From: an uncultured Thermodesulfobacteriota bacterium
GTDB taxonomy: Bacteria; Desulfobacterota; WTBG01; CAIYCZ01; CAIRTM01
Length of the DNA stretch: 64,000 bases
NCBI GenBank assembly: GCA_964566035.1
Contig: CAZMHH010000007.1
Location: 4,803 to 68,802, forward strand
Direction of reading: 5' to 3'
Shown piece by piece: positions 15,574 through 49,598 of the stretch. The translations under genes and the position numbers were made by a program. How positions within the stretch are numbered: the stretch's first letter is position 1; every line of letters begins with the position of its first letter. The notes under the pieces were generated by a model. It did not search any database. It saw only the letters and a list, made by a program, of their open reading frames with translations, and had not been told where the DNA came from.

Positions 15574-15599
15574 AAAATACTTCCAGAAGAGGTAATTGA

Positions 15600-23509: not shown

Positions 23510-24208
23510 ATGCTTGTTACACTAAAAAAACAAATACCAGAAAAAGATAGAATTTACAGTCATTTAGGCAACTCAAGAGCCAGATCCAGGTCAAAATCAA
23601 TAAGGGTGAAAATAAAAAAAATAACTGAAACCCTGCCCGATTATATCGAACCTCGTCTGGTCTACAGTAAATGGCGTGTTGATACAGGAACAGACTGCAT
23701 TAAGTTTGAAAACGGATTGGAGCTAAGAAGCCGAAAATTTGCAATGATTATGAGGCATGCAACTGAAGCGTACTGTTTTGTTGCAACCATAGGCAGTCGT
23801 ATTGACAGGAAAATCAAAAAACTTATGAAAGACAATAAGCTTTCAGATGCTTATTTGCTTGATACGGCAGGATCCTTTGCAATAGAAGATGCTGTTGAGC
23901 AGTTCTGTAATGAAATTCATAAAGAAGCTGAGCAAAAAGCAATGACAACCACAATTCGTTTCAGCCCTGGTTACTGCGACTGTTCTGTAAGTGAACAGCG
24001 CAAGCTTTTTCGTCTTGTAACAGCTGAAAAGATTGGTGTAAGTCTTACCGATGCTTGTCTTATGCAGCCCAGGAAAACAATATCAGGGATTTTTGGCATT
24101 GTTCCTCCCCAAAACATTAAACATTACTCTGCCTATATTCCGTGCAGGGATTGTTCAAGGCAAAAGTGTATGAGCAGAAGAGAAGAATATCAATCAAAAT
24201 CAATATAA
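23510..24208 (+). CDS. stand-alone methionine-synthase (MetH) activation-domain-like protein (AdoMet-binding reactivation module)
   Basis: 'RFSPGYCDC...' and 'IGVSLTDACLMQPRKTISGIFGI' match the Met_synt_B12 activation-domain motifs (RxSPGY and IGx.LTES.mM.P..SVSG). C-terminus carries an extra Cys cluster, CRDCSRQKC. CAGGGACAG ribosome-binding site before the ATG. Confidence 0.55.
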   Translation: MLVTLKKQIPEKDRIYSHLGNSRARSRSKSIRVKIKKITETLPDYIEPRLVYSKWRVDTGTDCIKFENGLELRSRKFAMIMRHATEAYCFVATIGSRIDRKIKKLMKDNKLSDAYLLDTAGSFAIEDAVEQFCNEIHKEAEQKAMTTTIRFSPGYCDCSVSEQRKLFRLVTAEKIGVSLTDACLMQPRKTISGIFGIVPPQNIKHYSAYIPCRDCSRQKCMSRREEYQSKSI

Positions 24209-24252: not shown

Positions 24253-25716
24253 ATGAATATTAGAAAAGGACTCGATGGGGGTCAATATTGCCCATTAAAT
24301 GATGAGGATATAAAAAAAATACATGAAGCCACACTCAGAGTGTTTAGTGAAGTGGGTGTTGAGATAAACCATACTGAAGCCATTGAACTTTTTAAGGGTG
24401 CCGGTGCTGAAGTTGACGGTGATTCCGGAATTGTCCGAATCCCTTCTCACCTGGTTGAAAAATTAGTAGGTATGGCTCCTTCTGAAATTGTGCTGTGCGG
24501 ACGTGATGATGATCAAAGTCTTGACTGCAGGATAGGCGGAACACGTGTCTATATGGGGACCGGCGGAACAGCGCTTCAGGTGCAGGAGTCTGGAAGCAAT
24601 TCAGCCAGGCAGTCAAAGCTTGATGACATTGTTAACATGGCACGTCTTGTTGACAAACTTGAAAATATTCATTTCTATATGTTAAATGTCTATCCAAATG
24701 ACCTTGAAAACAGAAATGTTGATGTCAACCGTTTTGGAGCTGCTCTGAATAACACACAGAAACATATAATGGGAGGAGTCTATAGTGTTGAAGGAATACG
24801 CAATGTTGTCAGAATGGCTGAAATTATAGCAGGGTCTCCTGAAAAGCTGAGGGAACGCCCATTTATTTCAATGGTGGCATGTATTATAAGCCCTTTCAAG
24901 GTTGATGAGAGTTATGGAGAGCTGGCCATAGAGGTAGCCAGGCAGGGCATCCCGCTGGTGGTTCCTGCTGAGCCGTTGTGCGGAGCTACTGCCCCGATTA
25001 CACTTGCCGGAAATCTGTTGGTGCAGAATGTTGATACTCTTACAGGGGTTATGCTCAGCCAGTTGGTCAACCCCGGCACACCTATTTTATACGGTTGTAT
25101 TTCATCAATTACAGATCTGAGAGACATGAAATATCTTGCAGGAGCTGTTGAAATGGGTCTTTTGAATGCTGCATCTTCACAGATGGCAAGATTTTACGGT
25201 ATCCCGATTTATGCCACAGCAGGCATGTCTGATTCCAAGGTAAATGATGCTCAGGTTGGTTATGAGTCTGCAATGACAAACCTTATGGTTGCTCTTGCCG
25301 GAGCAAATTTTATTCACGATGCAGCGGGTTTTTTAGAGTTCTGTAAAACTGCCTCATATGATAAGCTTGTGATAGACAATGAAATTATTGGTATGGTTAT
25401 GCGTGCTGTTGAAGGAATTAAGGTTAGTGATGAGACACTTGCCTTTGATGAGATTAAAAAGGCAGGACCGGGGGGTAATTTCATCTCCTCGCGATTAACA
25501 AGGAAACTCATGCGTTCAGAACAATATAAACCCTGTTTCAGCGACAGGGAGAACAGAGATGTTTGGATGGAAGGCGGGTCAAAGGATGCTGCAACCAGGG
25601 CAACTGAGCATGTCGGCAGGGTTTTGGGTAAGGCTCGAGAAGCTGTTTTGCCCGCAGAGATCAGAAAATCTATTTTAGCTGAAATACAGGGGATTTGTCC
25701 CGAGATAATGCAATAA
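24253..25716 (+). CDS. MttB-superfamily (trimethylamine methyltransferase family) corrinoid-dependent methyltransferase, non-pyrrolysine type (MtgB-like)
   Basis: Full-length, 487 aa, with no internal stop codon, so no in-frame UAG. MttB-family TIM-barrel motifs are spread through the protein. Confidence 0.8.
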   Translation: MNIRKGLDGGQYCPLNDEDIKKIHEATLRVFSEVGVEINHTEAIELFKGAGAEVDGDSGIVRIPSHLVEKLVGMAPSEIVLCGRDDDQSLDCRIGGTRVYMGTGGTALQVQESGSNSARQSKLDDIVNMARLVDKLENIHFYMLNVYPNDLENRNVDVNRFGAALNNTQKHIMGGVYSVEGIRNVVRMAEIIAGSPEKLRERPFISMVACIISPFKVDESYGELAIEVARQGIPLVVPAEPLCGATAPITLAGNLLVQNVDTLTGVMLSQLVNPGTPILYGCISSITDLRDMKYLAGAVEMGLLNAASSQMARFYGIPIYATAGMSDSKVNDAQVGYESAMTNLMVALAGANFIHDAAGFLEFCKTASYDKLVIDNEIIGMVMRAVEGIKVSDETLAFDEIKKAGPGGNFISSRLTRKLMRSEQYKPCFSDRENRDVWMEGGSKDAATRATEHVGRVLGKAREAVLPAEIRKSILAEIQGICPEIMQ

Positions 25717-25743: not shown

Positions 25744-26535
25744 ATGATTATGATAGGTGAGAAGATAAATGCAACAATTAAGCGTGTTAAAAGCATTGTT
25801 GAGAATAGAGATAATGACGGGCTTGTTCAGCTTGCCAAAGCTCAGTCAGAGGCAGGAGCTGATATAATTGATGTAAATGTTGGAACAGGAACAGGAACTC
25901 AAGCAGATGAAATTGATGCAATACAGTGGGCAGTTGAATTGATTCAGCAGCATGTGGATAAACCGCTTTGTATTGACAGTGCCGACAAGGCTGTTCTTGA
26001 AGCTGGCTTGAAAAAAATAGACGGAAGACAGAGCATGATCAATTCCGTAAAGGCAGAAGAAAACAATATGGATGATATTATTCCTTTGGCAAAAGAGTTC
26101 AATTCCATGCTGGTAGCTCTTCCAATGGATGAAAAAGGTATTCCTGCTACTACTGCTGAAAGGGTTGATGTTTGCAGACAACTAATAAACCACTGTAAAA
26201 AATACGGGTTTTCTGTTGATAAACTATTCTTTGATCCGCTGGTGCTGCCGATATCATCTGATATTACTCAAGGGGCTATCACCCTGGACACACTTGCTGC
26301 TATCAAAAAAACATTTCCAGAGTCTAAAACAGTTATGGGGCTCTCAAATGTTTCCTATGGGCTTCCGGAGAGAAAGAAGCTCAACGCCGGTTTTATGTAT
26401 ATGGCAATTTATGCAGGTCTGGATGCTGTTATTGCAAATCCTATGGACGATGAGATTCAAATGGCTATAAAAGTGGCAGAAGCTTTAACCGGTAAAGATC
26501 CCCGTTGCAGGAGATATACAAGGGCTTTGAGATAA
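25744..26535 (+). CDS. pterin-binding methyltransferase (methylcorrinoid:tetrahydrofolate methyltransferase, MtgA/MtrH/AcsE-like)
   Basis: 'IMIGEKINATI' pterin-binding-domain start motif and DHPS-like TIM barrel. Positioned between the two mttB paralogs. Confidence 0.7.
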   Translation: MIMIGEKINATIKRVKSIVENRDNDGLVQLAKAQSEAGADIIDVNVGTGTGTQADEIDAIQWAVELIQQHVDKPLCIDSADKAVLEAGLKKIDGRQSMINSVKAEENNMDDIIPLAKEFNSMLVALPMDEKGIPATTAERVDVCRQLINHCKKYGFSVDKLFFDPLVLPISSDITQGAITLDTLAAIKKTFPESKTVMGLSNVSYGLPERKKLNAGFMYMAIYAGLDAVIANPMDDEIQMAIKVAEALTGKDPRCRRYTRALR

Positions 26536-26724: not shown

Positions 26725-28266
26725 ATGATTGATAATGAAGAATTTAGAAAGGGTATAGTTGTAAAGCCCTACAATAGACTTACCGAGCAGCAGGTTGGGC
26801 TTCTTGACAGAACCTCTCTTGATATACTGAAGGATCCTGGAATATGGTGTTATAATAAAAGAGCTGCAGATCTTTTTCATGAAAACGGAGCAGTGGTAAG
26901 GGAAGATTCTGATCAAAAGGGACATTTGTGGAGGATAAGCATTCCATCAGAACTTGTAAAAAAATCAGTTAAAAAAGCTCCTTCACGGTTTGTACTTGGA
27001 GCGCGCAATCCTGCAAACAGACTTTTGCTGGATGCCCAGGTACCAAGAGTATATTTTGGCTCAGGGTCTGAAACAAATGTCTGGATTGAGACCGAACTGG
27101 AAGACTTTGTAAGTCGCAGAGAACCGGGTATTAAGGTAAGGCTTCCGCGCTACAGGCAACTGCGAGGCAGCGCAGCTTTGCTGTGCAGGGCTGCAAAAAT
27201 ATGTGACAAGCTTGATAATCTTGATTTTTTTATAAGACCTGTAAATATTCAGGATGAAGGAATAACAGAAGATAATCATGATGTGAACAAGTTTTTTGCA
27301 AGTTTGAACAATATAACCAAACATGTTCAGGCAGGGTTGACAAAACTTGAAAAACTTGACGATGTTGTCCGTATGGCTGAGCTTATAGCAGGTGGAGCGG
27401 ACAATCTCAGAAAAAATCCTTTGATATCCTTTATTGCATGTGTGTTTAAAAGCCCCCTGCAAATGGTTGAAGATACAACCGATAAGGTTTTTGCAATAGT
27501 AGAGGCGGGTCTTCCGCTTGTGATATCATCATCACCGCAGGGGGGTTCCACAGCACCCATTCAGGAGACAGGAATGGTTGCCCAGATAAATGCAGAGATA
27601 CTTGCCGGTATAACTTTCACTCAGCTTATAAAACCCGGAGCACCTGTATTATATGGCAGTGTTCCAGTGCGTGCCCGCATGGATGACCTGCACGATTTAT
27701 ATGGCTGCCCTGAATTTAATCAGTATAATCATGACTGTGTTCAGTTGGCACGTCATTATCAGGTGCCGTGTTATTCCACAGCAGGAGTGGCTGATGCAAA
27801 AGTTCCCGGTATGCAGGCTTCATTTGAAAAGCTTCTTACTCATCTATATATGACAATGACCGGAGCCCAATATATTCATTATGCATTTGGGCTTTTGAAC
27901 AGGACTAATTCATTTTGTCCTGTTCAGGCTGTTATAGACAATGAACATATAGATAAGATTAAACAGAGTCTTAGAAATCCGGATGTCAGTGAACAGACCT
28001 ACGAAGAAACACTTAAGATGGTTCGCAAGGTTATGAATTCTCCCAATCGTCTTTATGCGCGTCATGCCCGCAAAGCAATTCATTCAGGACTTGTATCAGA
28101 GCCATATAAGTTTTCTGGCAGCGGCGCCGAGGACAAGGTTATTGAATATGCACTTAAGGAACTGTCCACCATAGAAGCAGAACCGGCAAGCCATATTCCT
28201 CATGAGATTCAGGACAGGATATTTGCTCAGATTTCCGGTCTTCTGCCGATACTGAAGAGCTGTTAA
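26725..28266 (+). CDS. second MttB-superfamily corrinoid-dependent methyltransferase (non-pyrrolysine)
   Basis: 513 aa, no internal stop. Collinear with the first paralog in the conserved blocks but highly diverged from it. Confidence 0.8.
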   Translation: MIDNEEFRKGIVVKPYNRLTEQQVGLLDRTSLDILKDPGIWCYNKRAADLFHENGAVVREDSDQKGHLWRISIPSELVKKSVKKAPSRFVLGARNPANRLLLDAQVPRVYFGSGSETNVWIETELEDFVSRREPGIKVRLPRYRQLRGSAALLCRAAKICDKLDNLDFFIRPVNIQDEGITEDNHDVNKFFASLNNITKHVQAGLTKLEKLDDVVRMAELIAGGADNLRKNPLISFIACVFKSPLQMVEDTTDKVFAIVEAGLPLVISSSPQGGSTAPIQETGMVAQINAEILAGITFTQLIKPGAPVLYGSVPVRARMDDLHDLYGCPEFNQYNHDCVQLARHYQVPCYSTAGVADAKVPGMQASFEKLLTHLYMTMTGAQYIHYAFGLLNRTNSFCPVQAVIDNEHIDKIKQSLRNPDVSEQTYEETLKMVRKVMNSPNRLYARHARKAIHSGLVSEPYKFSGSGAEDKVIEYALKELSTIEAEPASHIPHEIQDRIFAQISGLLPILKSC

Positions 28267-28381: not shown

Positions 28382-29083
28382 ATGATGGAAAACGATCTTA
28401 TAGAACAGATAAAATTTAATATTCTTCAGGGACGTATTGAAGCCGAAGATGAAGGGTTTGATGAAGGACTTGAGGGAAAGCCTGCTGTGACAGAATTGAT
28501 TTCCGAGGCATTGAAACAAAAGATTGACACTAAGGAAATAGTAACCGGAGCGCTTAATTCAGCAATGGAAATTGTTGGAGAAAAATTTGAAAAAGGGGAG
28601 TATCTTATTCCTGATATGCTTGCATCTGCTGAGTGTGTGGGGGCTGCCATGGATTTGATTGCTCCTCAGATGGTTGATGATGGCATTGAAAACAAGGGAA
28701 CTTTTGTTATTGCAACCGTCAAGGGAGACTTGCATGATATTGGTAAAAACATAGTGTCTATTATGGTCAAGGGTGCTGGTTATGATGTTGTGGATCTGGG
28801 AACAGATGTTGCTTCAGATCGAATTGCAAAGGAAGTAAAGGACAGAAAGGCTGCATTTCTTGGTTTATCAGCGCTTCTAACAACAACGATGAGGGAGATG
28901 GAAACAGTTATAGGCATGCTGGAAGATACAGGTATTCGAAAAAGTGTAAAGGTGCTGATAGGCGGAGCCCCTACATCAAAAGACTTTGCAAGCCAGATTG
29001 GTGCTGATGCTCACTGCAATGATGCATTTGAGGCGATAGCTGTTTTAAAGTCACTGGCTAATATAAAATCAGTTGCAGCCTAA
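28382..29083 (+). CDS. cobalamin-binding corrinoid protein (MtgC/MttC-like)
   Basis: B12-binding N-terminal cap domain plus Rossmann domain with 'DLHDIGKNIV' (DxHxxG) and 'GGAP' motifs. Confidence 0.9.
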   Translation: MMENDLIEQIKFNILQGRIEAEDEGFDEGLEGKPAVTELISEALKQKIDTKEIVTGALNSAMEIVGEKFEKGEYLIPDMLASAECVGAAMDLIAPQMVDDGIENKGTFVIATVKGDLHDIGKNIVSIMVKGAGYDVVDLGTDVASDRIAKEVKDRKAAFLGLSALLTTTMREMETVIGMLEDTGIRKSVKVLIGGAPTSKDFASQIGADAHCNDAFEAIAVLKSLANIKSVAA

Positions 29084-29101: not shown

Positions 29102-30361
29102 ATGGTAGAAAAGAAAGCATATTCAGAAGCAGTAGATACAGGCAAATATAACAAGACTACCGGGCTGCTGGGAAAGTACGATAATGTCAGACGATTCTGG
29201 GAGGATCAGTTGAGCGGTATTTTTTTAAGGCCTGCTCTAAATGAACTTGTTAAAAACAAAACTGACAGGCTCGAAAGGATACGGATTCTTGATCTTGGAT
29301 GCGGAAGCGGAGATGCCTACGATCTGATTATGAATATATATACAAAAGACCCGGGGATTTATGATTATATAACCGGTGCAATTACACACGAAAATTTGCA
29401 GGAATATGTCGGTCTTGATGTGAATGAAGATCTGTTGGAGCAGGCTAGACAGTATTGGGCAGGCAACGCGAAGCTCCGTTTTGTTACAGGAGATCTGAGT
29501 CAGGGTTTGCCGGAATCATCGGTTGGAAATGAAGCTTTTGATATGTATTATACATCCTATGGAACACTGGCTCATTTTACCGATGAGGTTAATACCCGTC
29601 TTATTGCCGATATTTTTAAACATGCATCAAATGGGGCCTTGTTTGTAGGAGATTGGCTTGGCAGATATTCCTATGAATGGCAGGATCTGTGGCACCATTC
29701 TGCAAATGAGGAATATTTTATGGATTACCGCATATCTTATATTTATGAAAAAGATGAGCGGAATAATGCTGATATTGCCTCTTTTCCACTGCGACTGATG
29801 ACACGTGATGAAATAATGAAAATAATAAATAAAGCTTCAGATAGGTCAGGGGTTAAGGTTGTTCCGGTCTGTTTTTATGACCGTTCAATATTTGTCGGAC
29901 GTCATCTTGAAACAGGAGATTATAACCGCTATTGCCCGCCAATGCGAAGCAGGGTAAACTCTCTGTTTGAATCTTATATGCGGACAGATCTTTCATCAAT
30001 CAAATTTGATTATGTTCCGAGACAAGGGTTTGACCACCTTAATAATTTTTTTGAAATGTATTTCATGTCCTGCAATGCCCTTGTTGATTATACAATTTCA
30101 CTGCTTAGCCAATATGAAAGTGAATCAGGTCTTATTAAGTCTGAACCGGAAATAAAGTCTTATTTCCCCGAACCCTTGAAGGAGGTTATGCGCACAATGC
30201 GCAAGGTTGTTGAAGGGGTCGGATCTCTGAAATACGGTGAGGTTCGTGCAAATTTTATAGAACCTCAACTGGGTTATGCATTGCGGGAGCTTGAGATAAA
30301 ACTGCAACCTGGAACCGGAGTTGGACATAGTCTGGCCGGTATATTCAGAATAGAAAAATAG
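29102..30361 (+). CDS. class I SAM-dependent methyltransferase with ~200-aa C-terminal extension
   Basis: Motif I 'ILDLGCGSGDAYD' and post-I acidic residue 'VGLDVNEDLL'. Lies 18 bp after the corrinoid protein gene. Confidence 0.65.
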   Translation: MVEKKAYSEAVDTGKYNKTTGLLGKYDNVRRFWEDQLSGIFLRPALNELVKNKTDRLERIRILDLGCGSGDAYDLIMNIYTKDPGIYDYITGAITHENLQEYVGLDVNEDLLEQARQYWAGNAKLRFVTGDLSQGLPESSVGNEAFDMYYTSYGTLAHFTDEVNTRLIADIFKHASNGALFVGDWLGRYSYEWQDLWHHSANEEYFMDYRISYIYEKDERNNADIASFPLRLMTRDEIMKIINKASDRSGVKVVPVCFYDRSIFVGRHLETGDYNRYCPPMRSRVNSLFESYMRTDLSSIKFDYVPRQGFDHLNNFFEMYFMSCNALVDYTISLLSQYESESGLIKSEPEIKSYFPEPLKEVMRTMRKVVEGVGSLKYGEVRANFIEPQLGYALRELEIKLQPGTGVGHSLAGIFRIEK

Positions 30362-30578
30362 GTTAGCATTTTAGTTCCTATTTCAGAGAAGTTTTTCGTG
30401 ATCGTTATCTGAAGAGCTGTTTTCAGGTGCAAGGAAATTCTTAAAACCAAGTATCATTTATAAGCAAAACCTTTTGTTATCGTCATGATAAAAAAGCCTT
30501 TTATCAGGGCGGAAATATTTTTTCTACGCTAAAAACAGAAAACAGTTTATAAAATACCAAAAGAGGTAATTAAAGGGT

Positions 30579-31838
30579 ATGGAAATCTCAGAGATAGTCA
30601 GTGGCTTAACCTCAAGATCAAAAAAAGGCGCAGCGGAAATAGGAGCAGCACCTTCGATGGTTAAGAACATAATTCTTAACAAAATGGCTGATTTGCTGGA
30701 AAAATACTCTAATGATGTTATTGCCGCAAATAAATCAGACCTTAACTCTGCACTGGATAAAGGTGTTGAGGGATCTCTCTATGAAAGACTCAAATTTGAT
30801 GAGGCAAAGATAAAAGGCAGGGTAAATTCACTGAAAAAAATTACCCAACTACCGGACCCTGTAGGACAGGTGATAGAGGAAAAACAGCTTGAAAACGGGT
30901 TGACCGCTTCAAGGATAAGGGTGCCAATAGGTGTACTGCTTATGATATATGAAGCACGACCCCATGTAACAGTTAATGCAGGAGCTTTTTGCATAAAATC
31001 AGGAAATGCAATTATCTGTAAAGGTGGCAGTGAAGCGTTGCTGTGCAACAGGTTATTGGGCAAGTTGTGGTCAGATGCGCTTATGCATGCAGGTGTCTCC
31101 TCTGATGTTGTGCAGGTGGCAGAACTCAATCACGAGGAAGTTGCACAGTTGCTGACCATGAAAGATGATATTAATCTTGTAATCCCGCGCGGTGGAAAGC
31201 AGCTAATCAGAACAGTGGCTGAAAAATCATCTGTTCCGGTTATAAAACATTTTGAGGGAATTTGTCATATCTATATAGGAGACAGGGCAGACTACAGTAA
31301 GGCATTGAAAATTGTACTTGATTCAAAAATTCTTATGCCGGCAGTGTGTAATGCAGCTGAAACAGTACTGGTAGACTATAGCATGAAGGGGATTTTGCCT
31401 GATATGATTGCAAGCCTTCAGAAAAATGGTGTAGAGGTTCGTGGATGTCCGGAGGTTTGCAGCATTTTTGACGGAATAAAAGAGGCAACAGAGGATGACT
31501 GGTATACCGAATATCTTGACAGTATCTATTCTGTAAGGGTTGTTGATGGGATTCATGAGGCAATTGCCCATATTACCAAATATGGCAGTGGACATACTGA
31601 TGTAATTGTTACAGAAAATTATTCAGAGTCAAGACGTTTTGTTCGGGAAGTGGATTCATCGGTTGTTATTGTTAATGCTTCTACCATGTTTTGTGACGGT
31701 GAGACTCTTGGTATGGGGGCTGAGATAGGTATTTCAACTGACAGACTTCACGCCAGAGGTCCGATGGGTTTAAACGAGCTTACAACTTATAAGCACATTA
31801 TCATGGGAGATGGTCAGACAATGGGGCAGGGTTTTTAA
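30579..31838 (+). CDS. proA: glutamate-5-semialdehyde dehydrogenase (gamma-glutamyl phosphate reductase)
   Basis: 'IRVPIGVLLMIYEARPHVTVNAGAFCIKSGNAIICKGGSEA' and a catalytic Cys region typical of ProA. Confidence 0.9.
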   Translation: MEISEIVSGLTSRSKKGAAEIGAAPSMVKNIILNKMADLLEKYSNDVIAANKSDLNSALDKGVEGSLYERLKFDEAKIKGRVNSLKKITQLPDPVGQVIEEKQLENGLTASRIRVPIGVLLMIYEARPHVTVNAGAFCIKSGNAIICKGGSEALLCNRLLGKLWSDALMHAGVSSDVVQVAELNHEEVAQLLTMKDDINLVIPRGGKQLIRTVAEKSSVPVIKHFEGICHIYIGDRADYSKALKIVLDSKILMPAVCNAAETVLVDYSMKGILPDMIASLQKNGVEVRGCPEVCSIFDGIKEATEDDWYTEYLDSIYSVRVVDGIHEAIAHITKYGSGHTDVIVTENYSESRRFVREVDSSVVIVNASTMFCDGETLGMGAEIGISTDRLHARGPMGLNELTTYKHIIMGDGQTMGQGF

Positions 31839-31972
31839 ATGCAGATATGAGTTATTGAAAAAATGGCCATCCCTGTAAAACCTGTTTTGGAGAATTATTT
31901 CAGATTATAAAAAGGCTTTTGCCAGGTAGTTAAAAGGGTAATTGAAAATATTTAAAAATTAAATGAGGTTTT

Positions 31973-33367
31973 TTGTTTTGCTTAAGAGCCAATAGCAGAA
32001 CAGCTATTATGTCAAAGATATATGATTATTACATGAAAAGATTTAATGCCTCTCAGGTTGGAGTGGATGCAGCTCAGAGACGCATAGGATCAGAACTTAA
32101 ATTTCCGCTTGTATGTGAAGATGGGTCAGCTGTAAGTCGTGATGTGGTAGATGTTTTATGGTCATATCTGCAGGGGCTTGGATGGAAACCGGTTGTTGAT
32201 GGAATGACTAAAAAAATAGTAGGAGCTCAGCGGCCCGGTGAGAAAAATGATACCATTGCATCATGTGAAACCGGTTATTGTAAAACAGAATTTTCACTTT
32301 CCCATGTTGCTGACCTTAACCAGTTGAATAAAGATATAGAAGATCTTAAACACATTCTTCAGAATTTTTCAGAACAACACCGTGTCAGATTTCTTGGATA
32401 TGGAATACATCCGGTTTCACACCCAGGCAAAAAGTTATTGATGAAAAAAAGCCGTTCAGGTGTATGGGACAAATTGTTTGGAGCCAATCGACATATCGCT
32501 CATGAGGATGGTGATGATGTGCATCTTTTCACTGTTAACGCTGCAAGCCATACTCATATAAGTGTAGCCCCAGATGAGGCCGTAAAAACCGTAAATGTGC
32601 TTAATGGTTTTGCAGGAGCCCAGATTGCACTCAATGCCAATTCAAGTATCTGGAAAGGTGATATTGATCCCCGATATAAATGTGTTGCTGAAAAATTCTG
32701 GGATTGGTGGATGTCTGACAGAAAAAGGATTGGTGTTCCTGAAGTTCCGTTTCGGGATATGCGCCATTATATTGATACCGTATCAGAGTTCAGGCCAGTG
32801 TTTATTCTGAGAGAAGGGAAACCATTGCTCCTTAGCAGGTATGATTCCTTTGCAGGATATTTTGACGAAACCGATGCCATAGCTGTTGATACTGATAATA
32901 AAGAAGTTAATGTTGTCCCGGAGCATGGAGATTTTGATCTGCACTGCACCTGTTACTGGTATAATGCAAGGATATCGCGCTATTTTACAGTTGAAAACAG
33001 AATTAATGATCAGCAGCCTCCCGCAGAATTGATGACTGTTCCTGCAATAACCCTTGGTCTTGTATCAGCACTTGATGAAGCATGGGAAGAGGTTAGAGTC
33101 TGGGACTGGATTGAGATTCGAAAAAGCAGGGAGACAGCCTGTGAAAAAGCTATGGATGGTGCTATTGGAAAGGTTTCACTTGTTGAGTATATCCAACGAA
33201 TGCTGTCTGTTGCAAGGCTTGGTTTAGAACGAAGGGGCAGAGGAGAAGAGATGTTTCTTGCACCTCTTTTTGAACGTCTTCAAAACAGGAAGTGCCCTGC
33301 AGAAGAATCCGAAAGAGTGTTTAGAAAAGAGGGTATGGCAGGATTTCTTAATTCGGTAACAATATAA
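31973..33367 (+). CDS. glutamate--cysteine ligase family 2 (GCS2/YbdK/EgtA-like carboxylate-amine ligase), putative
   Basis: N-terminal 'IGSELKFPLV' resembles the GCS2 'GxExEFxLVD' motif. The ORF starts at a TTG, since the track uses alternative start codons. The true start could instead be the ATG at 32009. Confidence 0.45.
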   Translation: MFCLRANSRTAIMSKIYDYYMKRFNASQVGVDAAQRRIGSELKFPLVCEDGSAVSRDVVDVLWSYLQGLGWKPVVDGMTKKIVGAQRPGEKNDTIASCETGYCKTEFSLSHVADLNQLNKDIEDLKHILQNFSEQHRVRFLGYGIHPVSHPGKKLLMKKSRSGVWDKLFGANRHIAHEDGDDVHLFTVNAASHTHISVAPDEAVKTVNVLNGFAGAQIALNANSSIWKGDIDPRYKCVAEKFWDWWMSDRKRIGVPEVPFRDMRHYIDTVSEFRPVFILREGKPLLLSRYDSFAGYFDETDAIAVDTDNKEVNVVPEHGDFDLHCTCYWYNARISRYFTVENRINDQQPPAELMTVPAITLGLVSALDEAWEEVRVWDWIEIRKSRETACEKAMDGAIGKVSLVEYIQRMLSVARLGLERRGRGEEMFLAPLFERLQNRKCPAEESERVFRKEGMAGFLNSVTI

Positions 33368-33385
33368 CATGACTATTATTAGAAA

Positions 33386-34627
33386 ATGAACAATACAAAT
33401 ACATCTCAGCCTACCTTGGCGCTTGATTTGCCGCCAGGCATGACAATAGAAGATTTGATATATCCTGTTTACTATCTTGATACAACTCAAATCAACCTTA
33501 ATGATTCTGACAGTAAAGCAATAGTAAACAATGCGTTATATGATTTATTCTGTCTTGCCCATGATGGTGCTGTTAAGGGACAAACTCTCATTAAACTGCA
33601 TATTGGCGAACCACGTTGCAAGACAAGGTTGCGTCCGGAATATACTGCTTCTATTAAGCGTTTCCTTGAACATCAGGGAGCAGACAGTGTTGTTGCCGGT
33701 GATTCAACGGTTGCATATACAGGAATGCGCGGGCATAAACAGAACCCCATAGATGATGTTTCCAGTTATATGAACCTTGCCGAAAAGCATGGCTGGTCTG
33801 TGAATGGAACTGCGGGGGTTCCGTTCGTTGTGCTTGATAGACCTTGTTCTGCAATACAAGGTGTATATGAGTTCGGTGAGGAACAGCAATGCAGAAAGGT
33901 GGACGGGGTAGCAAGATATACAGACTTTTTCTTATCCGGTGGATTTGCTGAAGCGGATTTTATTGTTAACAGTGCACACCTGACACTGCATGGTTTGGCA
34001 GGACTGGCAGGTTGTGTTAAGAACATTGCAATGGGGTGCGCCGGTTTGACAGGAAAATTGAGAATGCATCAGTTTCTTCTTCCCGGATTTGATGGGGATT
34101 TATGCACGCGTTGCGGGATATGTGTTGCAAACTGTCCGGAAGATGCTCTATCATTAACTGATACTGATCTATTTCCCTGGGTTGCTGAAGGGGTATGTAT
34201 CGGGTGCGGGGAGTGTGTTTCATTATGTCCAAGTAAGGCTGTAAAGCTGTCCGGAAAAGATATCAATGACTGGTCAAGGGGAGAGGAGACACTTCCCGTA
34301 CGTATGGCAGATTATACCATAGGGCTCATGAACGGATTCTGGGATAAATCCCTGCATGTGCTGCATATGTATAGCATAACGGAACTTTGTGACTGTGTGG
34401 ATAAGTTTCAAAAACCATTTGTGGATGATTTAGGCTTTGTTGTCAGTAAAAATCCCTTTGCGGTTGATCTTGTAAGTGCCGACCTGCTCAGCAGAAAACA
34501 TTCAGAAAGCGTTTCAGTAAATATTGATAAGAAAATTAAATCTGCGGAGTTAATAGCTGATTATGTAAAAGAAAAATATGGTATTTTCAGTAAAGTTCCT
34601 GTGCATAAAGTTGTAATAAAAAAATGA
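33386..34627 (+). CDS. DUF362-family protein with inserted 2x[4Fe-4S] ferredoxin domain
   Basis: Two 'CxxCxxCxxxCP' motifs (CTRCGICVANCP and CIGCGECVSLCP). DUF362-like N- and C-terminal blocks. Confidence 0.55.
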   Translation: MNNTNTSQPTLALDLPPGMTIEDLIYPVYYLDTTQINLNDSDSKAIVNNALYDLFCLAHDGAVKGQTLIKLHIGEPRCKTRLRPEYTASIKRFLEHQGADSVVAGDSTVAYTGMRGHKQNPIDDVSSYMNLAEKHGWSVNGTAGVPFVVLDRPCSAIQGVYEFGEEQQCRKVDGVARYTDFFLSGGFAEADFIVNSAHLTLHGLAGLAGCVKNIAMGCAGLTGKLRMHQFLLPGFDGDLCTRCGICVANCPEDALSLTDTDLFPWVAEGVCIGCGECVSLCPSKAVKLSGKDINDWSRGEETLPVRMADYTIGLMNGFWDKSLHVLHMYSITELCDCVDKFQKPFVDDLGFVVSKNPFAVDLVSADLLSRKHSESVSVNIDKKIKSAELIADYVKEKYGIFSKVPVHKVVIKK

Positions 34628-34805: not shown

Positions 34806-35780
34806 ATGATACGGTTTGAAGAGATATCCAAGGTATATCCGGGAAAAGTAAAGGCGGTTTCCGGTATATCACTTGATGTTTCAGCCGGAGAAACGCTTGT
34901 ATTGCTTGGAACAAGCGGAAGCGGAAAGACTACCCTTTTAAAGATGGTGAACAGATTGATAGAACCATCAGGAGGGCGTATCCTGATTGAGCAACAGGAT
35001 ATTATGGATTATAATCCTGTAGAGCTAAGGCGAAGGATTGGATATGCTATTCAGCATATAGGGCTGTTTCCCCATATGACTGTCGCAGAGAATATTGCTG
35101 TTGTTCCTCAACTGTTGAAATGGTCTCGTAAAAACATACTTCAACAAACTGAAAAGTTATTATCCATGACAGGTCTCGCACCGGATGAATTTAAGGACAG
35201 ATATCCGTTCCAGTTGAGCGGGGGCCAAAGGCAGAGGGTTGGGGTAGCAAGGGCATTGGCTGCCGATCCTGTAATTGTGCTTATGGATGAACCTTTTGGT
35301 GCATTAGATCCTCTCACCCGAGAAAGCCTGCAGGATGAGTTTATAGAGCTTGAAGCTGATATTAAAAAAACTATTCTTTTTGTCACCCATGATGTGTTTG
35401 AGGCTGTAAAAATGGGAGACAGGGTTGCGCTTATAGACAACGGCATTCTGCAACAGCTTTCTACCCCTTCAGAACTTATAGAAAATCCTGCCAACGAATT
35501 TGTTTCATCTTTCCTGGGCCAGCATCGGTTTCAGTTATTACTTCTTACAAAAAAACTTAAAGATGTAATTAAAGCCGGTGAAACAGAGTGGATTGAACAA
35601 ACAAAGCCGGAAGTCTATCTTGATGCAGAACAGTCAATTATTAAGGCGCTTGACACATTCGGGAAAACCAAAACAAAAACCTTGCCCGTGTTTGAGGGGG
35701 AATCAAATAATATAGGAACTCTTGCAAAAAAGGAGTTGCTTGCTATTATTTCAGATATTCTGGGGGATATCAGTCAATAG
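34806..35780 (+). CDS. ABC transporter ATP-binding protein, osmoprotectant (glycine betaine/choline/carnitine) uptake type (OpuCA/OpuBA-like)
   Basis: Walker A 'GTSGSGKTT', signature 'LSGGQRQRV' and Walker B 'LMDEPFGALD'. C-terminal regulatory extension. Confidence 0.85.
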   Translation: MIRFEEISKVYPGKVKAVSGISLDVSAGETLVLLGTSGSGKTTLLKMVNRLIEPSGGRILIEQQDIMDYNPVELRRRIGYAIQHIGLFPHMTVAENIAVVPQLLKWSRKNILQQTEKLLSMTGLAPDEFKDRYPFQLSGGQRQRVGVARALAADPVIVLMDEPFGALDPLTRESLQDEFIELEADIKKTILFVTHDVFEAVKMGDRVALIDNGILQQLSTPSELIENPANEFVSSFLGQHRFQLLLLTKKLKDVIKAGETEWIEQTKPEVYLDAEQSIIKALDTFGKTKTKTLPVFEGESNNIGTLAKKELLAIISDILGDISQ

Positions 35781-35845
35781 TTATAATACAGCGTGGACTG
35801 TATTTTCCGGAAGAACACTTAAAACCTAATACAGGTTGATAAAAA

Positions 35846-36514
35846 ATGGATTTGGCAACCTTCTGGCAGAGAATGGGGCAGGATATAATACATGCAACGA
35901 TAGAACATATTTATCTTACCTTTATCGCTCTTATTTTGGCCTTGTTTATCGCTATCCCTCTGGGTATATATCTCACGAGAACCAGATATCAAAAACTTGC
36001 AGATATTGTTCTCAATATTTTTGGTGTGGTTCAGACAATTCCAAGTCTTGCTCTTATTGCCCTCATAGTTGTCATTTTTGCTTTAGCAGGTTTGCCAACT
36101 ATAGGTACGTTGCCGGGTATAGTAGCCCTTGTTATGTATGCCCTGCTTCCGTTATTGCGCAATACTTATACCGGCATTAAGCAGGTTGATCCAGCTCTTA
36201 TAGAAGTAGCCAGGGGAATGGGGATGAGAGACTATCAAATGCTTTTTACTGTCGAACTGCCTTTGGCTCTGCCTGTAATTACAGCAGGTATAAGGATTTC
36301 AACGGTCTGGACGATAGGTGTGGCAACACTTGTGGGGCTTATCGGGGCAGGAGGGTTGGGTGATCTTATTATCAGGGGACTGAGAACAATACAGATTGAT
36401 TATCTTTTAGCCGGCACTGTACCTGCTGCTATTCTTGCGCTCTTGGCGGATTTTATAATAAGCAGGCTTGAGCGCTGGCTAGTGCCTGAAGGGCTTTCCA
36501 AAAACAGTCAGTAG
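35846..36514 (+). CDS. ABC transporter permease (OpuCB/OpuBB-like)
   Basis: Five or six TM segments. 'EVARGMGMRDYQMLFTVELPLA' is the EAA loop. Confidence 0.85.
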   Translation: MDLATFWQRMGQDIIHATIEHIYLTFIALILALFIAIPLGIYLTRTRYQKLADIVLNIFGVVQTIPSLALIALIVVIFALAGLPTIGTLPGIVALVMYALLPLLRNTYTGIKQVDPALIEVARGMGMRDYQMLFTVELPLALPVITAGIRISTVWTIGVATLVGLIGAGGLGDLIIRGLRTIQIDYLLAGTVPAAILALLADFIISRLERWLVPEGLSKNSQ

Positions 36515-36569
36515 AGAAAAACGGGGATCACAAAACTGACAAACAGATCGGATATGCGAGACGATTTTT

Positions 36570-37511
36570 ATGACATTAAAAACAAAACTTTTAACTATTG
36601 TCGGAGTCAGTATCCTTATCGGAGCATTGCTTTTCGCAACTCAGAAGGATAAGGTAACCGGTTTCAGACCAGCTTTTGATGCGGAATTCTTAGCCAGACC
36701 CGACGGATACAGGGGGCTTAAAAAAATATATAAACTTGAATTTCCTGTGCGGCCATTGCAAATGGAACCGGGACTTATGTATAGAGCATTAAAGGATAAA
36801 GCTGTTAATGTAATTAACGCATTTGCAACTGACGGCAGAATTCCTGCCTACAACCTTATTACCCTTGAAGATGACAGAGGTTTTTTCCCCCCTTATTATG
36901 CAGCGCCAGTTATCAGGCGTGATACACTTGATAAATATCCTGAACTTGAATCCGTACTCAATGTATTGGCAGGGAGGATAACACAAAAAAAGATGCAACA
37001 ACTCAACTATAAGGTGGATGAAAAGCGCATGAGAGCAGCAGATGTAGCTGCTGATTTTCTGGTTTCAGAAGGGCTGATACAGACAGGAAATATCTCTTCG
37101 CAGCCGACGGCAGGGAGAGTTGCAGTTGGGGCGAAACACTTTACCGAGCAGGAAATATTGGGTGAAATGCTGTCGTTGCTCATAGAACAAAATACCAGCC
37201 TACAGGTAAAACGTTATTTGAATCTTGGAGGAACACTAATATGTTTTAACGCTTTAAGAACAGGGGGTATAGACATATATGCGGAATATACAGGTACAGG
37301 CCTTATCAACATTTTAAATGAAGATATGGTTTCTGACCCTGAACAAGCCTATCAAAAAGTAAAAGAAGAGTTTAAGGAGCAGTTTGATATTTTATGGCTT
37401 AAACCCTTTGGTTTCAATAATACCTATACACTTACCATGCGCAAAGATGAGGCTGAAAAACTTGCAATAGAGTCCATTTCAGACCTTTCTGAATTTCTTC
37501 AAAATCAATAA
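36570..37511 (+). CDS. glycine betaine/quaternary amine ABC substrate-binding protein (OpuAC-fold, OpuCC-like)
   Basis: Signal/TM anchor. 'NAFATDGRIPAYNLITLEDDRGFFPPYYAAPVIR' is typical of OpuCC/OpuBC-type binding proteins. Confidence 0.8.
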   Translation: MTLKTKLLTIVGVSILIGALLFATQKDKVTGFRPAFDAEFLARPDGYRGLKKIYKLEFPVRPLQMEPGLMYRALKDKAVNVINAFATDGRIPAYNLITLEDDRGFFPPYYAAPVIRRDTLDKYPELESVLNVLAGRITQKKMQQLNYKVDEKRMRAADVAADFLVSEGLIQTGNISSQPTAGRVAVGAKHFTEQEILGEMLSLLIEQNTSLQVKRYLNLGGTLICFNALRTGGIDIYAEYTGTGLINILNEDMVSDPEQAYQKVKEEFKEQFDILWLKPFGFNNTYTLTMRKDEAEKLAIESISDLSEFLQNQ

Positions 37512-37904
37512 CCCTGAATTTTCTGATACCGGAAAGCCAGTTCCAGATAACAGATAACCCATGACTCCATTTATATACTTCTGCCAGCTATGAACCAAAT
37601 ATTTAACCAGTATTATAGAGTTGAAATAATACAAGTATCCTGATATTATAGCCTGAATATTATTGAAAAATATGTAATATAAACTGACCAATAAGCAGTA
37701 TTTACAGAGTGAGCATCCCCGACTGTCATTTCAAAGGATCATAGCGACTGAGAAATATAAGTTTATAGTACATATCTTTCCGATTTTTTTTACCTTCGAA
37801 TTGAGGATTTAAATGACAGGAGCAGGATAGTAATTATATATTGCATTTTATACTGTTAAGAGTATTTGAGACTGATAATATTTTTTGTGTATGGAGAGTT
37901 TCAG

Positions 37905-39464
37905 GTGAATAAAAGAGTTAATAAACAGGGAAAAGTTGTGGTAGTAGGGGCAGGGGCAGGAGGGTTAAGCTCTGCTGTTCACCTTGCTGCACAAGGCTGG
38001 GAAGTGGTGATATTTGAAAAAGAGGAGACCCCGGGAGGAAGGTTAGGAGCCATTGAATCTGATGGATACCGTATTGATGTCGGAGCGACCATCCTTATGA
38101 TGTATGATGTGTTTGAGCAGTTTTTTTCTGGCTTGGGAAGGGACATTAAAGATTATCTGGAATTGACCCGCTTAAACCCATGTTACCATCTAAATTTTAC
38201 TGACGGAACCATGATGACTCCTTCAAATGATCTTAAACATAACCTTGATGAAATAAGAGCCATAAATCCCGATGACGTAGAAGGCTATCTCAAGTATCTT
38301 GCCCAGATTCACAGGCGCTATATGGTTGCCCGGTATAATTTCATTGAAAAGCCAATGACAAGGCTCAGAGACTTTCTTAATATAAAAACACTTACAAGCA
38401 TGTTGAAGCTTAAAACATTAAACAACATGTATGCTGATATCAGCCGTTTTGTAAAAGATGAACGGGTTCGCATATCGCTTACCTTTCAGTCAATTTATCT
38501 TGGTATTTCACCATATCAGGCGCCTTCAATCTATACATTAATTCCCTATGTTGAGCACGGACTTAGCGGAATATGGTATCCAAAAGGCGGTATGAACTCT
38601 ATTACAAGAGCTCTTGTTTGTCTGCTGGAAGAGTTCGGAGGAGAGATTCATCTAAAAAGCTCTGTAGAGAGCATAACAGTTGAAAATGGGCAGGTTAAGG
38701 GGGTGACTCTCAGCACCGGCAAAACAGTGTCTGCAGATGTTGTGATTTCAAATGTTGATTTTCCAACAACCATGCAGAAACTGGTACCGAAACAGCACAG
38801 GGGAGGCTATACACTTCCTAAGTTTGAAAGTATGACAAACTCCTGCGGCTGCATGATGTTTTATCTTGGTTCAAAGCAGCGGTATAACAGTCTGGGTGTT
38901 CACAATATTTATTTTACTGAAAATTACAAGAAGAGCCTTGATCAGATTTTTATTGAAAAGGTTCTGCCTGATGACCCTGCAATATATATATACTCGCCAA
39001 CACGCATTGATCCCTGTCTCGCCCCTGAAGGAGAAGAGATAATCTATGTTTTAGTTCCTGTTCCCAATATGGGAAGCAATGTAAACTGGGAGACAGAGGG
39101 CAAAGACTATCGCAGGCTGGTTTTTGAAAAACTTGAAAAATGCGGTCTGGAGGGTTTAAGAAAGAATATTGTTTTTGAAAAATATGCTGATCCAGGAACA
39201 TTCAGTGAACGGTTCAACACCTATCAGGGTGCAGGGTTTGGGCTTGCGCCGACCCTCTTTCAGTCGGGTTATTTCAGACCTTCTATTAAATCAAAAAAAG
39301 TTTCAGGGCTCTATTATGCCGGTGCAAGTGTTCACCCAGGCGGAGGGGTGCCTGTGGTGCTGGTCTGCGGCAGGCTTGTTGCACAGCAGATTCATTCAGA
39401 TAATAAATTAAACTGGGCGGTTCATACAAAGAAAAGCCATTATCTTCTTGAAAGACAAAATTGA
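37905..39464 (+). CDS. phytoene desaturase-family FAD-dependent oxidoreductase (CrtI/CrtD-like)
   Basis: Dinucleotide fold 'KVVVVGAGAGGLSSAVHLAAQGWEVVIFEKEETPGGR' and C-terminal 'GLYYAGASVHPGGGVP'. Start set to the GTG preceded by GGAGAG. Confidence 0.8.
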   Translation: MNKRVNKQGKVVVVGAGAGGLSSAVHLAAQGWEVVIFEKEETPGGRLGAIESDGYRIDVGATILMMYDVFEQFFSGLGRDIKDYLELTRLNPCYHLNFTDGTMMTPSNDLKHNLDEIRAINPDDVEGYLKYLAQIHRRYMVARYNFIEKPMTRLRDFLNIKTLTSMLKLKTLNNMYADISRFVKDERVRISLTFQSIYLGISPYQAPSIYTLIPYVEHGLSGIWYPKGGMNSITRALVCLLEEFGGEIHLKSSVESITVENGQVKGVTLSTGKTVSADVVISNVDFPTTMQKLVPKQHRGGYTLPKFESMTNSCGCMMFYLGSKQRYNSLGVHNIYFTENYKKSLDQIFIEKVLPDDPAIYIYSPTRIDPCLAPEGEEIIYVLVPVPNMGSNVNWETEGKDYRRLVFEKLEKCGLEGLRKNIVFEKYADPGTFSERFNTYQGAGFGLAPTLFQSGYFRPSIKSKKVSGLYYAGASVHPGGGVPVVLVCGRLVAQQIHSDNKLNWAVHTKKSHYLLERQN

Positions 39465-44512: not shown

Positions 44513-46168
<1,656 letters not shown>

Positions 46169-46330
46169 CTGCTGGCTGTTAAGCTGTTGAGCAAGGAGCA
46201 GCTATCAGGTGTCGGCAGTCGGCTGTCAGCAAAAAATAAAAGCTGATAAGCTGATAAGCCGTACAGAAAAGATTATTTACCATTAAATGCAGAAAATAAA
46301 GCTGAAGTTATTAAATAAGAGGATTCATCT

Positions 46331-46792
46331 ATGAATATTGATGAAAAATATCTTGGATTTGTTAAAGCAGTCTGTTTGAGCGATAAAAAAGGGTGCAGAA
46401 AAAAACAGGCTGAATCAGGAACTCTTGTGGAGAATGCAGGGTTTGCAGGTGATGCACACGCTGACGGTTCTACCCACAGGCAGGTAAGCCTTCTTGCAAT
46501 AGAGAGCATAGATAAAATGAGGAAAATGGGGCTTGATGTCAATCCAGGTGATTTTGCTGAAAACTTAACAACAGAAGGCATTGATCTGCTCTCTCTTGCA
46601 ATAGGTGAAAGGATTGGTATTGGCAGCAGTGCAGTTATTGAGGTTACCCAGCACGGAAAAGAATGTCATGCGCCTTGTGCCATTTACAGGCAGGCAGGAA
46701 CCTGCATTATGCCAAGTGAAGGAATATTTGCCCGTGTTGTAAGGGGAGGCAGTGTTAAAAACGGTGATGTAATTGAAAAATACTCCAGATAG
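46331..46792 (+). CDS. MOSC domain-containing protein
   Basis: 153 aa beta-barrel MOSC-like sequence with a conserved Cys near the C-terminus ('GKECHAPC'). Confidence 0.6.
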   Translation: MNIDEKYLGFVKAVCLSDKKGCRKKQAESGTLVENAGFAGDAHADGSTHRQVSLLAIESIDKMRKMGLDVNPGDFAENLTTEGIDLLSLAIGERIGIGSSAVIEVTQHGKECHAPCAIYRQAGTCIMPSEGIFARVVRGGSVKNGDVIEKYSR

Positions 46793-46922
46793 TTAATCCG
46801 GAAAGAGTACTGGAGAAAAATCTTTGAAAACGCTGAAGTCTGTCCCTGTGGTGCAGACAGGTGAATGTCTGGTGTAACACCTTACTGCCAGCATTATTAA
46901 ATGATAAAAGGATTAAGGATAT

Positions 46923-48071: not shown

Positions 48072-48077
48072 ATATAT

Positions 48078-49220: not shown

Positions 49221-49598
49221 AAAGGCAACTTTTGTTTTTGATGGGTTTCAGGATTAGTAACTTAGAAGTTATTTTTTGCATTTACTGGCAAAAAATATTT
49301 CAGTGTAGAGAAATAGCCTTGAAAACAGAAGTCAGAATAAAAAGTGAAAAGCTGCAAGTTACAAGTTTAAGAGTTTAAAAGTTTACCCGCTTTTGCTGAG
49401 AGCTACGATAACGACCACGAAGGGTTTGCTGATAGCTGACAACTGATACCTGACAGCTGCTTTTTGCTATGAGCTACCAGCTACGAGCTAACCCGGACAT
49501 CTTTTTGGTTCCGGCTTGTCCGGGTTAGGGGTCACTCATTAAAGGCTCTCTGTCAAGGCAATAATAGTTTCCCTGAGACAGAAGAATCTTTTTTCTGC

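Follow-up and report, generated by a model that had tools for sequence, protein, structure and literature searches.

The window analysed here is a stretch of 64,000 nucleotides from an uncultured Thermodesulfobacteriota bacterium (GenBank assembly GCA_964566035.1, contig CAZMHH010000007.1), and our subject is a block of four genes at 29102-34627, encoding an S-adenosylmethionine (SAM)-dependent methyltransferase (hereafter MTase), a ProA, a GCS2-like ligase and a DUF362 iron-sulfur protein, which an earlier note had described as an unexplained block between a corrinoid protein gene and a betaine transporter. Open reading frame (ORF) calls and profile matches place all four genes on the forward strand where that note had put them, apart from the start of the GCS2-like gene, to which we return below. 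The block belongs to a single co-directional array (23.5-37.5 kb) running from a gene similar to the MetH activation domain to an ABC importer. This array encodes, always on the forward strand, a MetH activation-domain-like protein (232 aa, 23510..24208, PF02965 at 37.6 bits), a non-pyrrolysine MttB-family methyltransferase (MttB1, 487 aa, 24253..25716, PF06253 at 345 bits), a pterin-binding methyl-tetrahydrofolate (methyl-THF):corrinoid methyltransferase (MT2, 25744..26535, PF00809, and NF005719 at 286 bits against a cutoff of 259), a divergent non-pyrrolysine MttB paralogue (MttB2, 513 aa, 26725..28266, PF06253 at 186 bits) and a corrinoid (B12-binding) protein (28382..29083, PF02310 and PF02607). 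Then come the class I MTase (419 aa, 29102..30361, Methyltransf_25/31/12), ProA (gamma-glutamyl phosphate reductase, 30579..31838, NF001221), the carboxylate-amine ligase-like protein of the GCS2 superfamily (452 aa, 32009..33367, longest ORF from 31973, PF04107 and TIGR01436), the DUF362 protein with an inserted 2x[4Fe-4S] ferredoxin domain (33386..34627, PF04015 and Fer4 families) and an ABC importer for quaternary amines (34806..37511), made up of an ATPase (34806-35780), a permease (35846-36514) and a substrate-binding protein (36570-37511). As noted earlier, the MTase gene starts 18 nt past the end of the corrinoid protein gene (29083) and its product has a long C-terminal part; the gaps flanking proA measure 135-218 nt. 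The same gene arrangement is found on an independent Logan contig. Pfam profiles were run on 52 of the 55 window ORFs of at least 110 aa (three short ORFs fell outside the scan), and proB, proC, metK and ahcY were absent from the 52 scanned, while an Rfam search over 22.8-38 kb (gathering threshold, then E<=1) gave no riboswitch or leader in the intergenic gaps.

Two surveys of related loci, one seeded with the MTase (80 loci fetched, nearly all from Desulfobacterota and including the isolates Desulfoferrobacter suflitae DRH4 and Desulfatitalea alkaliphila M08but), the other with the GCS2-like protein (80 metagenomic loci, 57 with enough upstream DNA and 41 long), show what is fixed in this array and what is exchanged. 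Throughout the 80 MTase-seeded loci, the module of MetH-activation-like protein, MttB1, MT2, MttB2, corrinoid protein and MTase is intact wherever the contig extends far enough. In every related locus with sufficient flanking sequence the MTase comes after the corrinoid protein or MttB2, and every cluster type has exactly two MttB paralogues and one SAM MTase. Downstream of the MTase, for which 66 loci with at least 1.7 kb could be counted, an AsnB-like gene comes directly next in 58, ProA-GCS2-DUF362 follows as in the window in two, the same three genes lie upstream of the MTase in a rearranged operon in another two, and four have neither set. The co-conservation with mttB clusters that the earlier note had proposed to look for in relatives is thus real, extending over several phyla and rearranged gene orders. 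The link to mttB holds, but the notion of four genes as one unit does not survive, as the MTase is retained where the other three are absent (the 58 of 66 loci with an AsnB-like gene instead) and belongs with the core, leaving a proA-GCS2 pair and an optional DUF362 gene.

The pair itself is tightly kept. ProA lies upstream of the GCS2-like gene within 1.1 kb in 56 of the 57 loci with enough upstream DNA and directly adjacent to it in 50. The median distance between the two genes is 10 nt, and in 16 of 63 pairs they overlap, usually by 4 nt. Among the 41 long loci, MttB1/MttB2 orthologues are present in 37, the MTase in 32, the importer ATPase (OpuAA) in 30 and DUF362 in 27, while AsnB occurs in none. 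DUF362 is restricted to this variant (no AsnB-type locus carries it), and the AsnB-like and ProA/GCS2 modules are mutually exclusive across the loci surveyed. The pair was found almost only in the MttB operon and never together with proB. Its hosts include Kiritimatiellae, Phycisphaerae, other Planctomycetota, Brocadiia, Poribacteria, Hydrogenedentes and Armatimonadia. Outside Desulfobacterota the usual order (including Planctomycetota and Kiritimatiellae) is ProA-GCS2-MttB1-(DUF362)-MttB2-MTase-OpuAA-AB-AC; in the window it is MetHact-MttB1-MT2-MttB2-CoP-MTase-ProA-GCS2-DUF362-Opu (MetHact, MetH-activation-like protein; CoP, corrinoid protein). Since the linkage is kept through such rearrangements across phyla, it points to function and not merely to inherited synteny or common ancestry. 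What stays constant is a core of MttB1, MttB2 and the SAM MTase. ProA and the GCS2-like protein are a separate, translationally coupled two-gene unit, of which DUF362 is an optional third member, and the corrinoid protein, MT2 and activator are either in the operon or, in many loci outside Desulfobacterota, presumably encoded elsewhere. In the non-Desulfobacterota form, proA is preceded by two receiver-like proteins of ~130 aa (no Pfam match) and a sigma54 NtrC-type activator, a set seen in L107 (4743-5542) and in ~25 further loci.

The AsnB variant is itself heterogeneous. Most AsnB-like copies start with MSG(F/L) (e.g., L002 13003-14526), i.e., Cys1, the nucleophile of class II amidotransferases, is replaced by Ser, and these are consequently not glutamine amidotransferases; a minority start with MCGI and exceed the AsnB equivalog cutoff, and some loci carry a bona fide AsnB alongside or instead of the AsnB-like gene. 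One array with an MTase of a Planctomycetota-type clade (L173) reads MarR-MttB-MttB-MTase-OpuA-AsnB-AsnB-like-aspartate aminotransferase. As AsnB here accompanies a different MTase clade and arrangement, the AsnB association is recurrent too, and the AsnB/aspartate aminotransferase set of this array resembles a module for making Asn from Asp. In three to five loci, metK and ahcY come immediately after the AsnB-like genes.

ProA has every mark of a canonical gamma-glutamyl phosphate reductase at the sequence level: it scores 516.5 bits against NF001221 (cutoff 289) and 421 bits against TIGR00407 (cutoff 317), matches the Burkholderia ProA structure (PDB 4ghk) at 357 bits and keeps the catalytic Cys of the ALDH fold (CNAAET aligned with CNTMET). 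The earlier description of a proA without proB was accurate, and it extends to the relatives, as neither ProB nor ProC families occur among the conserved neighbours of 48 long loci. Given a canonical ProA, gamma-glutamyl phosphate and glutamate-5-semialdehyde (GSA)/pyrroline-5-carboxylate (P5C) are very probably real intermediates. ProB-ProA and the osmostress set ProJ-ProA-ProH likewise couple a canonical ProA translationally to an ATP-dependent enzyme that acts on the gamma-carboxylate of glutamate, and the setting of the latter is related to osmotic stress, as in the operon type of the window. Unlike in those systems, however, the partner here is a GCS2-superfamily protein and not an amino-acid kinase, there is no ProC/ProH, and the sole candidate for a third step is the DUF362 Fe-S protein.

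The GCS2-like protein represents a distinct subfamily of the GCS2 superfamily with weak full-length similarity to plant-type glutamate-cysteine ligase (GCL). PF04107 is matched marginally and over residues 103-230 only (22.2 bits, cutoff 21), TIGR01436 (plant-type GCL) across the full length at 49 bits, far below its equivalog cutoff of 463, TIGR02050 at 32 bits, again short of its cutoff (176), and PDB 2gwc at 8e-5. The superfamily call of the earlier note stands on this marginal basis, but the cutoffs of the characterised GCL and YbdK equivalogs are not reached. The family comprises 467 clusters, the top 120 listed being 52-73% identical, and its members, of ~452 aa, start at the Met that is encoded at 32009, which places the TTG start at 31973 adopted earlier probably too far upstream; the end of the gene was correctly placed. 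With plant/proteobacterial-type GCL and YbdK the protein shares the HxH motif of the GCS2 family, and it differs from them in having strongly conserved, family-specific motifs of its own (CETGYCKxE and EKFWDWW), in the lack of glutathione or ergothioneine partners and in its obligate ProA neighbour. The profile check proposed for the fourth gene agrees with its assignment: PF04015 (DUF362) is matched at 80.1 bits against a cutoff of 24, together with Fer4 families, and the two 4Fe-4S motifs are of the CxxCxxCxxxCP type, at residues 240-251 and 271-282 (CTRCGICVANCP and CIGCGECVSLCP). A PDB search with this protein matched the ferredoxin insert alone. DUF362 shares a Pfam clan with the N-terminal domain of lactate racemase (PMC11770544).

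The two MttB paralogues are unusual members of their family. MttB1 finds Methanosarcina barkeri MttB (7xcl) as its best PDB match (289 bits), slightly ahead of MtgB (272 bits), and MttB2 is ~31% identical to MttB1. The in-frame UAG that encodes pyrrolysine (Pyl), at position 334 in MttB, is absent and both ORFs are uninterrupted; the homologous codon is ATG (Met325) in MttB1 and a Val codon in MttB2, and MttB1 orthologues have Met (54), Thr (32), Ile (2) or Ala (1) there. The Rfam model PYLIS_3 (mttB pyrrolysine insertion sequence) matches inside MttB1 at 25225-25324 with 62.9 bits, beginning exactly on the ATG of Met325, and weakly at the homologous site of MttB2 (26 bits, 27787-27886). To judge from these traces, both proteins look like de-pyrrolysinated relatives of the true trimethylamine methyltransferases. 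In addition to the PYLIS match at the homologous site, MttB1 has Gly110-Thr111 and Tyr329 in common with M. barkeri MttB, from which it departs, apart from the missing UAG/Pyl, by M249->E, Y364->H and G365->D (E249 and D365 in 87 of 89 orthologues, H364 in all 89). MttB2 has Ser/Cys, His and Tyr at positions 249, 364 and 365; the roles of these pocket residues in the M. barkeri enzyme are described in PMC9842639.

Glycine betaine is bound in MtgB by Y97, R312, H348 and F356, and R312 is common to all characterised acidic-betaine enzymes (PMC13080624). None of the four is kept in either paralogue (89 MttB1 and 94 MttB2 orthologues). At these positions MttB1 has T, Y, D and C (C or D at the last one) and MttB2 has S/T, Y, Y and T, within a conserved pocket set of S/T, Y, V, H, Y and T across its 94 orthologues. 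With all four betaine-binding residues missing, known acidic-betaine demethylation is an unlikely model for these enzymes. To judge from the alignments, their pockets would rather suit non-acidic or protonatable amines than glycine betaine or proline betaine. The two paralogues violate the rule of a conserved Arg that was proposed for the characterised non-Pyl members of the MttB family. The remaining machinery is complete, the MttB-family methyltransferase (MT1), corrinoid protein, MT2 and activator being encoded together and syntenic in ~60 loci. The corrinoid protein resembles MtgC models and scores under their cutoffs, and the MetH-activation-like protein, whose gene is syntenic in almost every related locus that extends far enough upstream, is likely its reductive reactivation partner. 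All these parts, i.e., MttB-family MT1, corrinoid protein, MT2, reactivation protein and an adjacent betaine-type importer, are shared with MtgBCA of Desulfitobacterium hafniense and with the MtpB, MtcB, MtyB and MthB systems of Eubacterium limosum, and the MthB pathway, like the window operon, includes an ATP-dependent accessory enzyme. In contrast to these systems, the operon type of the window always has two paralogous MT1s and an obligatory SAM methyltransferase, replaces all four MtgB substrate-binding residues including the shared Arg, adds the ProA/GCS2/DUF362 or AsnB modules and has a MetH-like reactivation protein where theirs are RamA-like.

The MTase has intact SAM motifs, and its invariant residues are rich in Arg and aromatic side chains. 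Its Pfam matches are confined to residues ~55-180, leaving the long C-terminal part unmatched, and as only the generic Methyltransf_25/31/12 families are hit, the class I assignment stands but the specific subfamily that the earlier note had hoped for did not emerge. No Methyltransf_33/EgtD signature is seen in the Pfam scan, and sequence and profile searches of the PDB returned weak matches only, which point to carboxyl O-methyltransferases. The family is large, with about 1800-1900 protein clusters at E<=1e-5 (1866 by one count; the top 120 listed are 61-87% identical over the full length) and relatives in 325 GTDB species (one genome per species scanned). An AlphaFold2 (AF2) model from 25 close homologues was unusable (pLDDT 58), and the addition of a second clade raised it to pLDDT 77 with a pTM of 0.80, predicting a Rossmann core followed by a helical C-terminal domain of ~170 aa. 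Foldseek searches with this model retrieved generic small-molecule N-, C- and O-methyltransferases only, at a query-based TM-score (TMq) of ~0.3, and no match for the C-terminal domain. GSMT (5hij) and GNMT (1r74) are among the 750 matches at TMq 0.28-0.31, where unrelated methyltransferases score equally well. The GSMT/SDMT systems with metK-ahcY are comparable in having a small-molecule class I SAM methyltransferase in a compatible-solute context, with metK/ahcY adjacent in some relatives of the window locus as well. However, the similarity is at the level of the fold only, the ~170-aa domain is unique to the window MTase, and the latter is a single enzyme embedded among corrinoid methyltransferases. 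An ArsM-type role or one in arsenobetaine metabolism was set aside, as the MTase has no Cys motif.

The importer at the end of the array is of a betaine type, namely OpuA/OpuC. Its ATPase matches the proV subfamily model at 315 bits, and the substrate-binding protein is closest to the structures of OpuBC, OpuCC, ProX and EgtUC, a group that binds trimethylammonium head groups. The two lobes of the binding protein are swapped, query residues 182-309 corresponding to chain residues 17-148 and query residues 40-170 to 160-289, which indicates a circular permutation relative to OpuBC, ProX and EgtUC.

On this basis we tentatively favour the view that the block is part of a widespread operon for the metabolism of methylated amines or compatible solutes, built around two non-pyrrolysine MttB paralogues. 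Enzymes of the glutamate-cysteine ligase type first form an enzyme-bound gamma-glutamyl phosphate. This chemistry, together with a canonical, coupled ProA and the lack of ProB, makes the GCS2-like protein most likely the missing glutamate 5-kinase: it would make gamma-glutamyl phosphate and pass it on to ProA (or consume it in reverse), and the two would constitute a ProB-independent, hence probably feedback-insensitive, route from glutamate to GSA/P5C/proline. The DUF362 protein would be a candidate for a ferredoxin-linked step on a pyrroline/proline intermediate. Each accessory module would then yield a neutral amino acid from an acidic one, Pro from Glu or, in the AsnB variant, Asn from Asp, which fits an osmotic context without proving a single pathway. 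The core trio, for its part, would handle one series of N-methylated amines, with MttB1 and MttB2, which have acid/base pocket residues and neither an aromatic cage nor the Arg, acting on protonatable or non-acidic methylamines and the SAM MTase acting on a step that involves a quaternary species. The core may run in either direction: demethylation fits the importer and the regulators, and methylation fits the trio, the pockets, the MetH-like reactivation and the metK-ahcY neighbours.

Several observations weigh against this proposal. We know of no precedent for a kinase-only role of a GCS2-family protein, and the strongly conserved motifs of the GCS2-like protein are specific to its own family. 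The MTase of the window is 64-68% identical to those of AsnB-type loci, so the accessory modules are probably not supplying its substrate, and the bond between accessory modules and core may be thematic (osmoadaptation) rather than that of one pathway. A SAM-consuming methyltransferase beside demethylases is paradoxical if the operon is catabolic. The sigma54/NtrC or MarR regulators and the importer are typical of catabolic operons. DUF362 is missing in ~1/3 of the ProA-GCS2 loci, and ProA could work in the oxidative direction instead, from GSA to gamma-glutamyl phosphate. In a bolder variant, which we regard as doubtful, MttB1, MttB2 and the SAM MTase would between them account for all three N-methyl steps of a single amine series, with no Pyl involved. 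The corrinoid enzymes would use acid/base catalysis on protonatable methylamines and SAM would be spent on the quaternary step only, yielding either a low-cost, methyl-THF-driven betaine biosynthesis or a complete Pyl-independent demethylation. In a more extreme version, P5C/GSA from the GCS2-ProA pair would take the place of pyrrolysine's pyrroline ring as a diffusible substitute. A futile cycle of quaternisation followed by demethylation was considered and set aside, as was the post-translational installation of an aldehyde in MttB, for which there was no support.

Among the alternatives, a catabolic link to the glutamate node is unlikely, though less so than the others. An imported methylated amine of the proline or ornithine type would be demethylated by MttB1/MttB2 and oxidised to P5C/GSA by the DUF362 protein as an Fe-S dehydrogenase; ProA would oxidise GSA to gamma-glutamyl phosphate, and the GCS2-like protein would convert the latter to glutamate and ATP, or to glutamine, conserving energy. 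The chemistry of ProA and the kinase is reversible and exergonic towards glutamate and ATP, an importer, two demethylase homologues and catabolic-type regulators stand in the same operon, the binding protein resembles the proline-betaine-binding ProX/OpuC proteins, and DUF362 occurs only together with ProA-GCS2. However, MttB1 and MttB2 lack the Arg of all characterised acidic-betaine demethylases, MtpB included, and the loss of both the conserved carboxylate-binding Arg and the His speaks equally against the earlier suggestion that the block processes the demethylated product of proline betaine. The pocket of MttB1 is acidic, the SAM MTase is left without a role, the AsnB variant offers no analogous catabolic logic, and a third of the loci do without DUF362.

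We consider it rather unlikely that the operon performs a hybrid betaine biosynthesis, in which MttB1 and MttB2 would methylate an amine, with methyl-THF as the donor and MT2 and the corrinoid protein as intermediaries. The MttBs would perform the first two N-methylations, which are near-isoenergetic, and the SAM MTase the uphill quaternisation, ProA-GCS2(-DUF362) or AsnB would provide other solutes or precursors, and the importer would recapture the product. Such a scheme would account for the constant presence of exactly two MttB paralogues and one SAM MTase, for pockets with acid/base residues and no quaternary-amine cage, for the MetH-like reactivation and the metK-ahcY genes adjacent in several loci, and for MscS, Trk and MarC as neighbours. 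On the other hand, we know of no MttB-family enzyme that runs in the methylating direction, the regulators and the placement of the importer look catabolic, and the thermodynamic feasibility is argued on general grounds only.

A still somewhat less probable alternative is that the ligase (GCS2-like or AsnB-like), the MTase or both mask or conjugate a carboxylate or an amine of the imported compound before it reaches MttB1/MttB2, by analogy with the phosphorylation of choline ahead of MthB in E. limosum. That choline kinase works with MthB, i.e., that an ATP-dependent derivatisation is tied to an MttB enzyme, is a precedent reported in PMC12155760, as cited in PMC13080624. Derivatisation would agree with the acidic, not basic, pocket of MttB1, with the fact that both mutually exclusive accessory enzymes are of ATP-dependent carboxylate-amine ligase types, with the Ser in place of Cys1 that argues against glutamine amidotransferase activity in most AsnB-like copies, and with the carboxyl O-methyltransferases among the weak MTase matches. 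It leaves unexplained, however, why a canonical ProA is translationally coupled to the ligase, and the bona fide AsnB and aspartate aminotransferase of some loci suggest ordinary Asn synthesis.

The synthesis of a gamma-glutamyl thiol, one of the readings in the earlier note, or of an ergothioneine-like compound by an EgtA-like ligase and an N-methyltransferase, to which GCS2 superfamily membership and the similarity of the binding protein to the ergothioneine transporter EgtUC might point, is highly improbable: no EgtB, EgtC, EgtE, EanB or GshB family occurs among the conserved neighbours of the 48 long loci, the MTase lacks the Methyltransf_33/EgtD signature, and ProA would be unexplained. 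Least credible of all is a mere adjacency of housekeeping genes, for although ProA scores as a normal ProA and the gaps around proA in the window are wide, the linkage is kept across phyla and rearrangements, and elsewhere gaps of <=10 nt or overlaps are the rule. Both the Egt-like pathway and mere adjacency are effectively excluded.

In a full-text literature search, nothing was found that describes this operon, the MTase family or a GCS2-ProA pair. All parts come from known families and together make up a corrinoid methyl-transfer operon, which looks unlike any described betaine pathway. To our knowledge, there are thousands of non-pyrrolysine MttB homologues, only a handful of them with known substrates, which are all acidic quaternary amines. 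The operon defines a large, cross-phylum subgroup among them (with carriers in Desulfobacterota, Planctomycetota, Kiritimatiellae, Poribacteria and Hydrogenedentes, among others). Solving it would show what a DUF362 protein and a new subfamily of GCS2 do, would possibly reveal a non-canonical route to proline, and would shed light on the cycling of methylated osmolytes, from which methane and trimethylamine arise, by anaerobic bacteria in sediments. Should the hybrid methylation or the pyrrolysine-surrogate idea prove true, the operon could be more than a variant of a corrinoid methyl-transfer system. Many of the matching contigs trace to a few recurring Joint Genome Institute (JGI) sample series, which are presumably saline or salt-marsh sediment sets and would fit an osmotic context.

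A number of further features were seen in and around these loci. Genes for osmotic stress flank related loci (L002, L005, and L172 at 15126-17098), namely an MscS-type channel (with a BON domain in L002 and L005), TrkH/TrkA and MarC. Five loci (L139 at 8916-9992, L108, L125, L134 and L147) have an additional gene of 358 aa between proA and the GCS2-like gene. Its product is without matches in Pfam and the PDB, gives a 25-bit match to an archaeal core methionine synthase model, has HVCG and SCGAG motifs and may be a methylcobamide:thiol methyltransferase. On a 508-kb contig (L146), the ProA-GCS2 pair has behind it only an N-terminal MttB fragment of 128 aa (11394-11780), with an MTase of the same family elsewhere on the contig, which suggests that this copy of the operon has decayed or been split. 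An apparent GCS2-DUF362 fusion in L144 was rejected, since it came from a long spurious ORF in a different frame. In the window itself, the importer is directly followed on the same strand by a CrtI/phytoene-desaturase-family FAD oxidoreductase (37866-39464, TIGR02734 at 487 bits), which is also present on the Logan contig and is not kept in the closest related locus (L007). A methionine/cysteine biosynthesis cluster (44870-54456) lies ~7 kb downstream of the operon, with three Cys/Met pyridoxal phosphate enzymes, an Rrf2 regulator, a PALP enzyme, a MetX-like hydrolase and MetW. The remainder of the window is of a housekeeping nature, comprising an RND efflux system, xseA, ispA, dxs, and methionine and thiamine biosynthesis.

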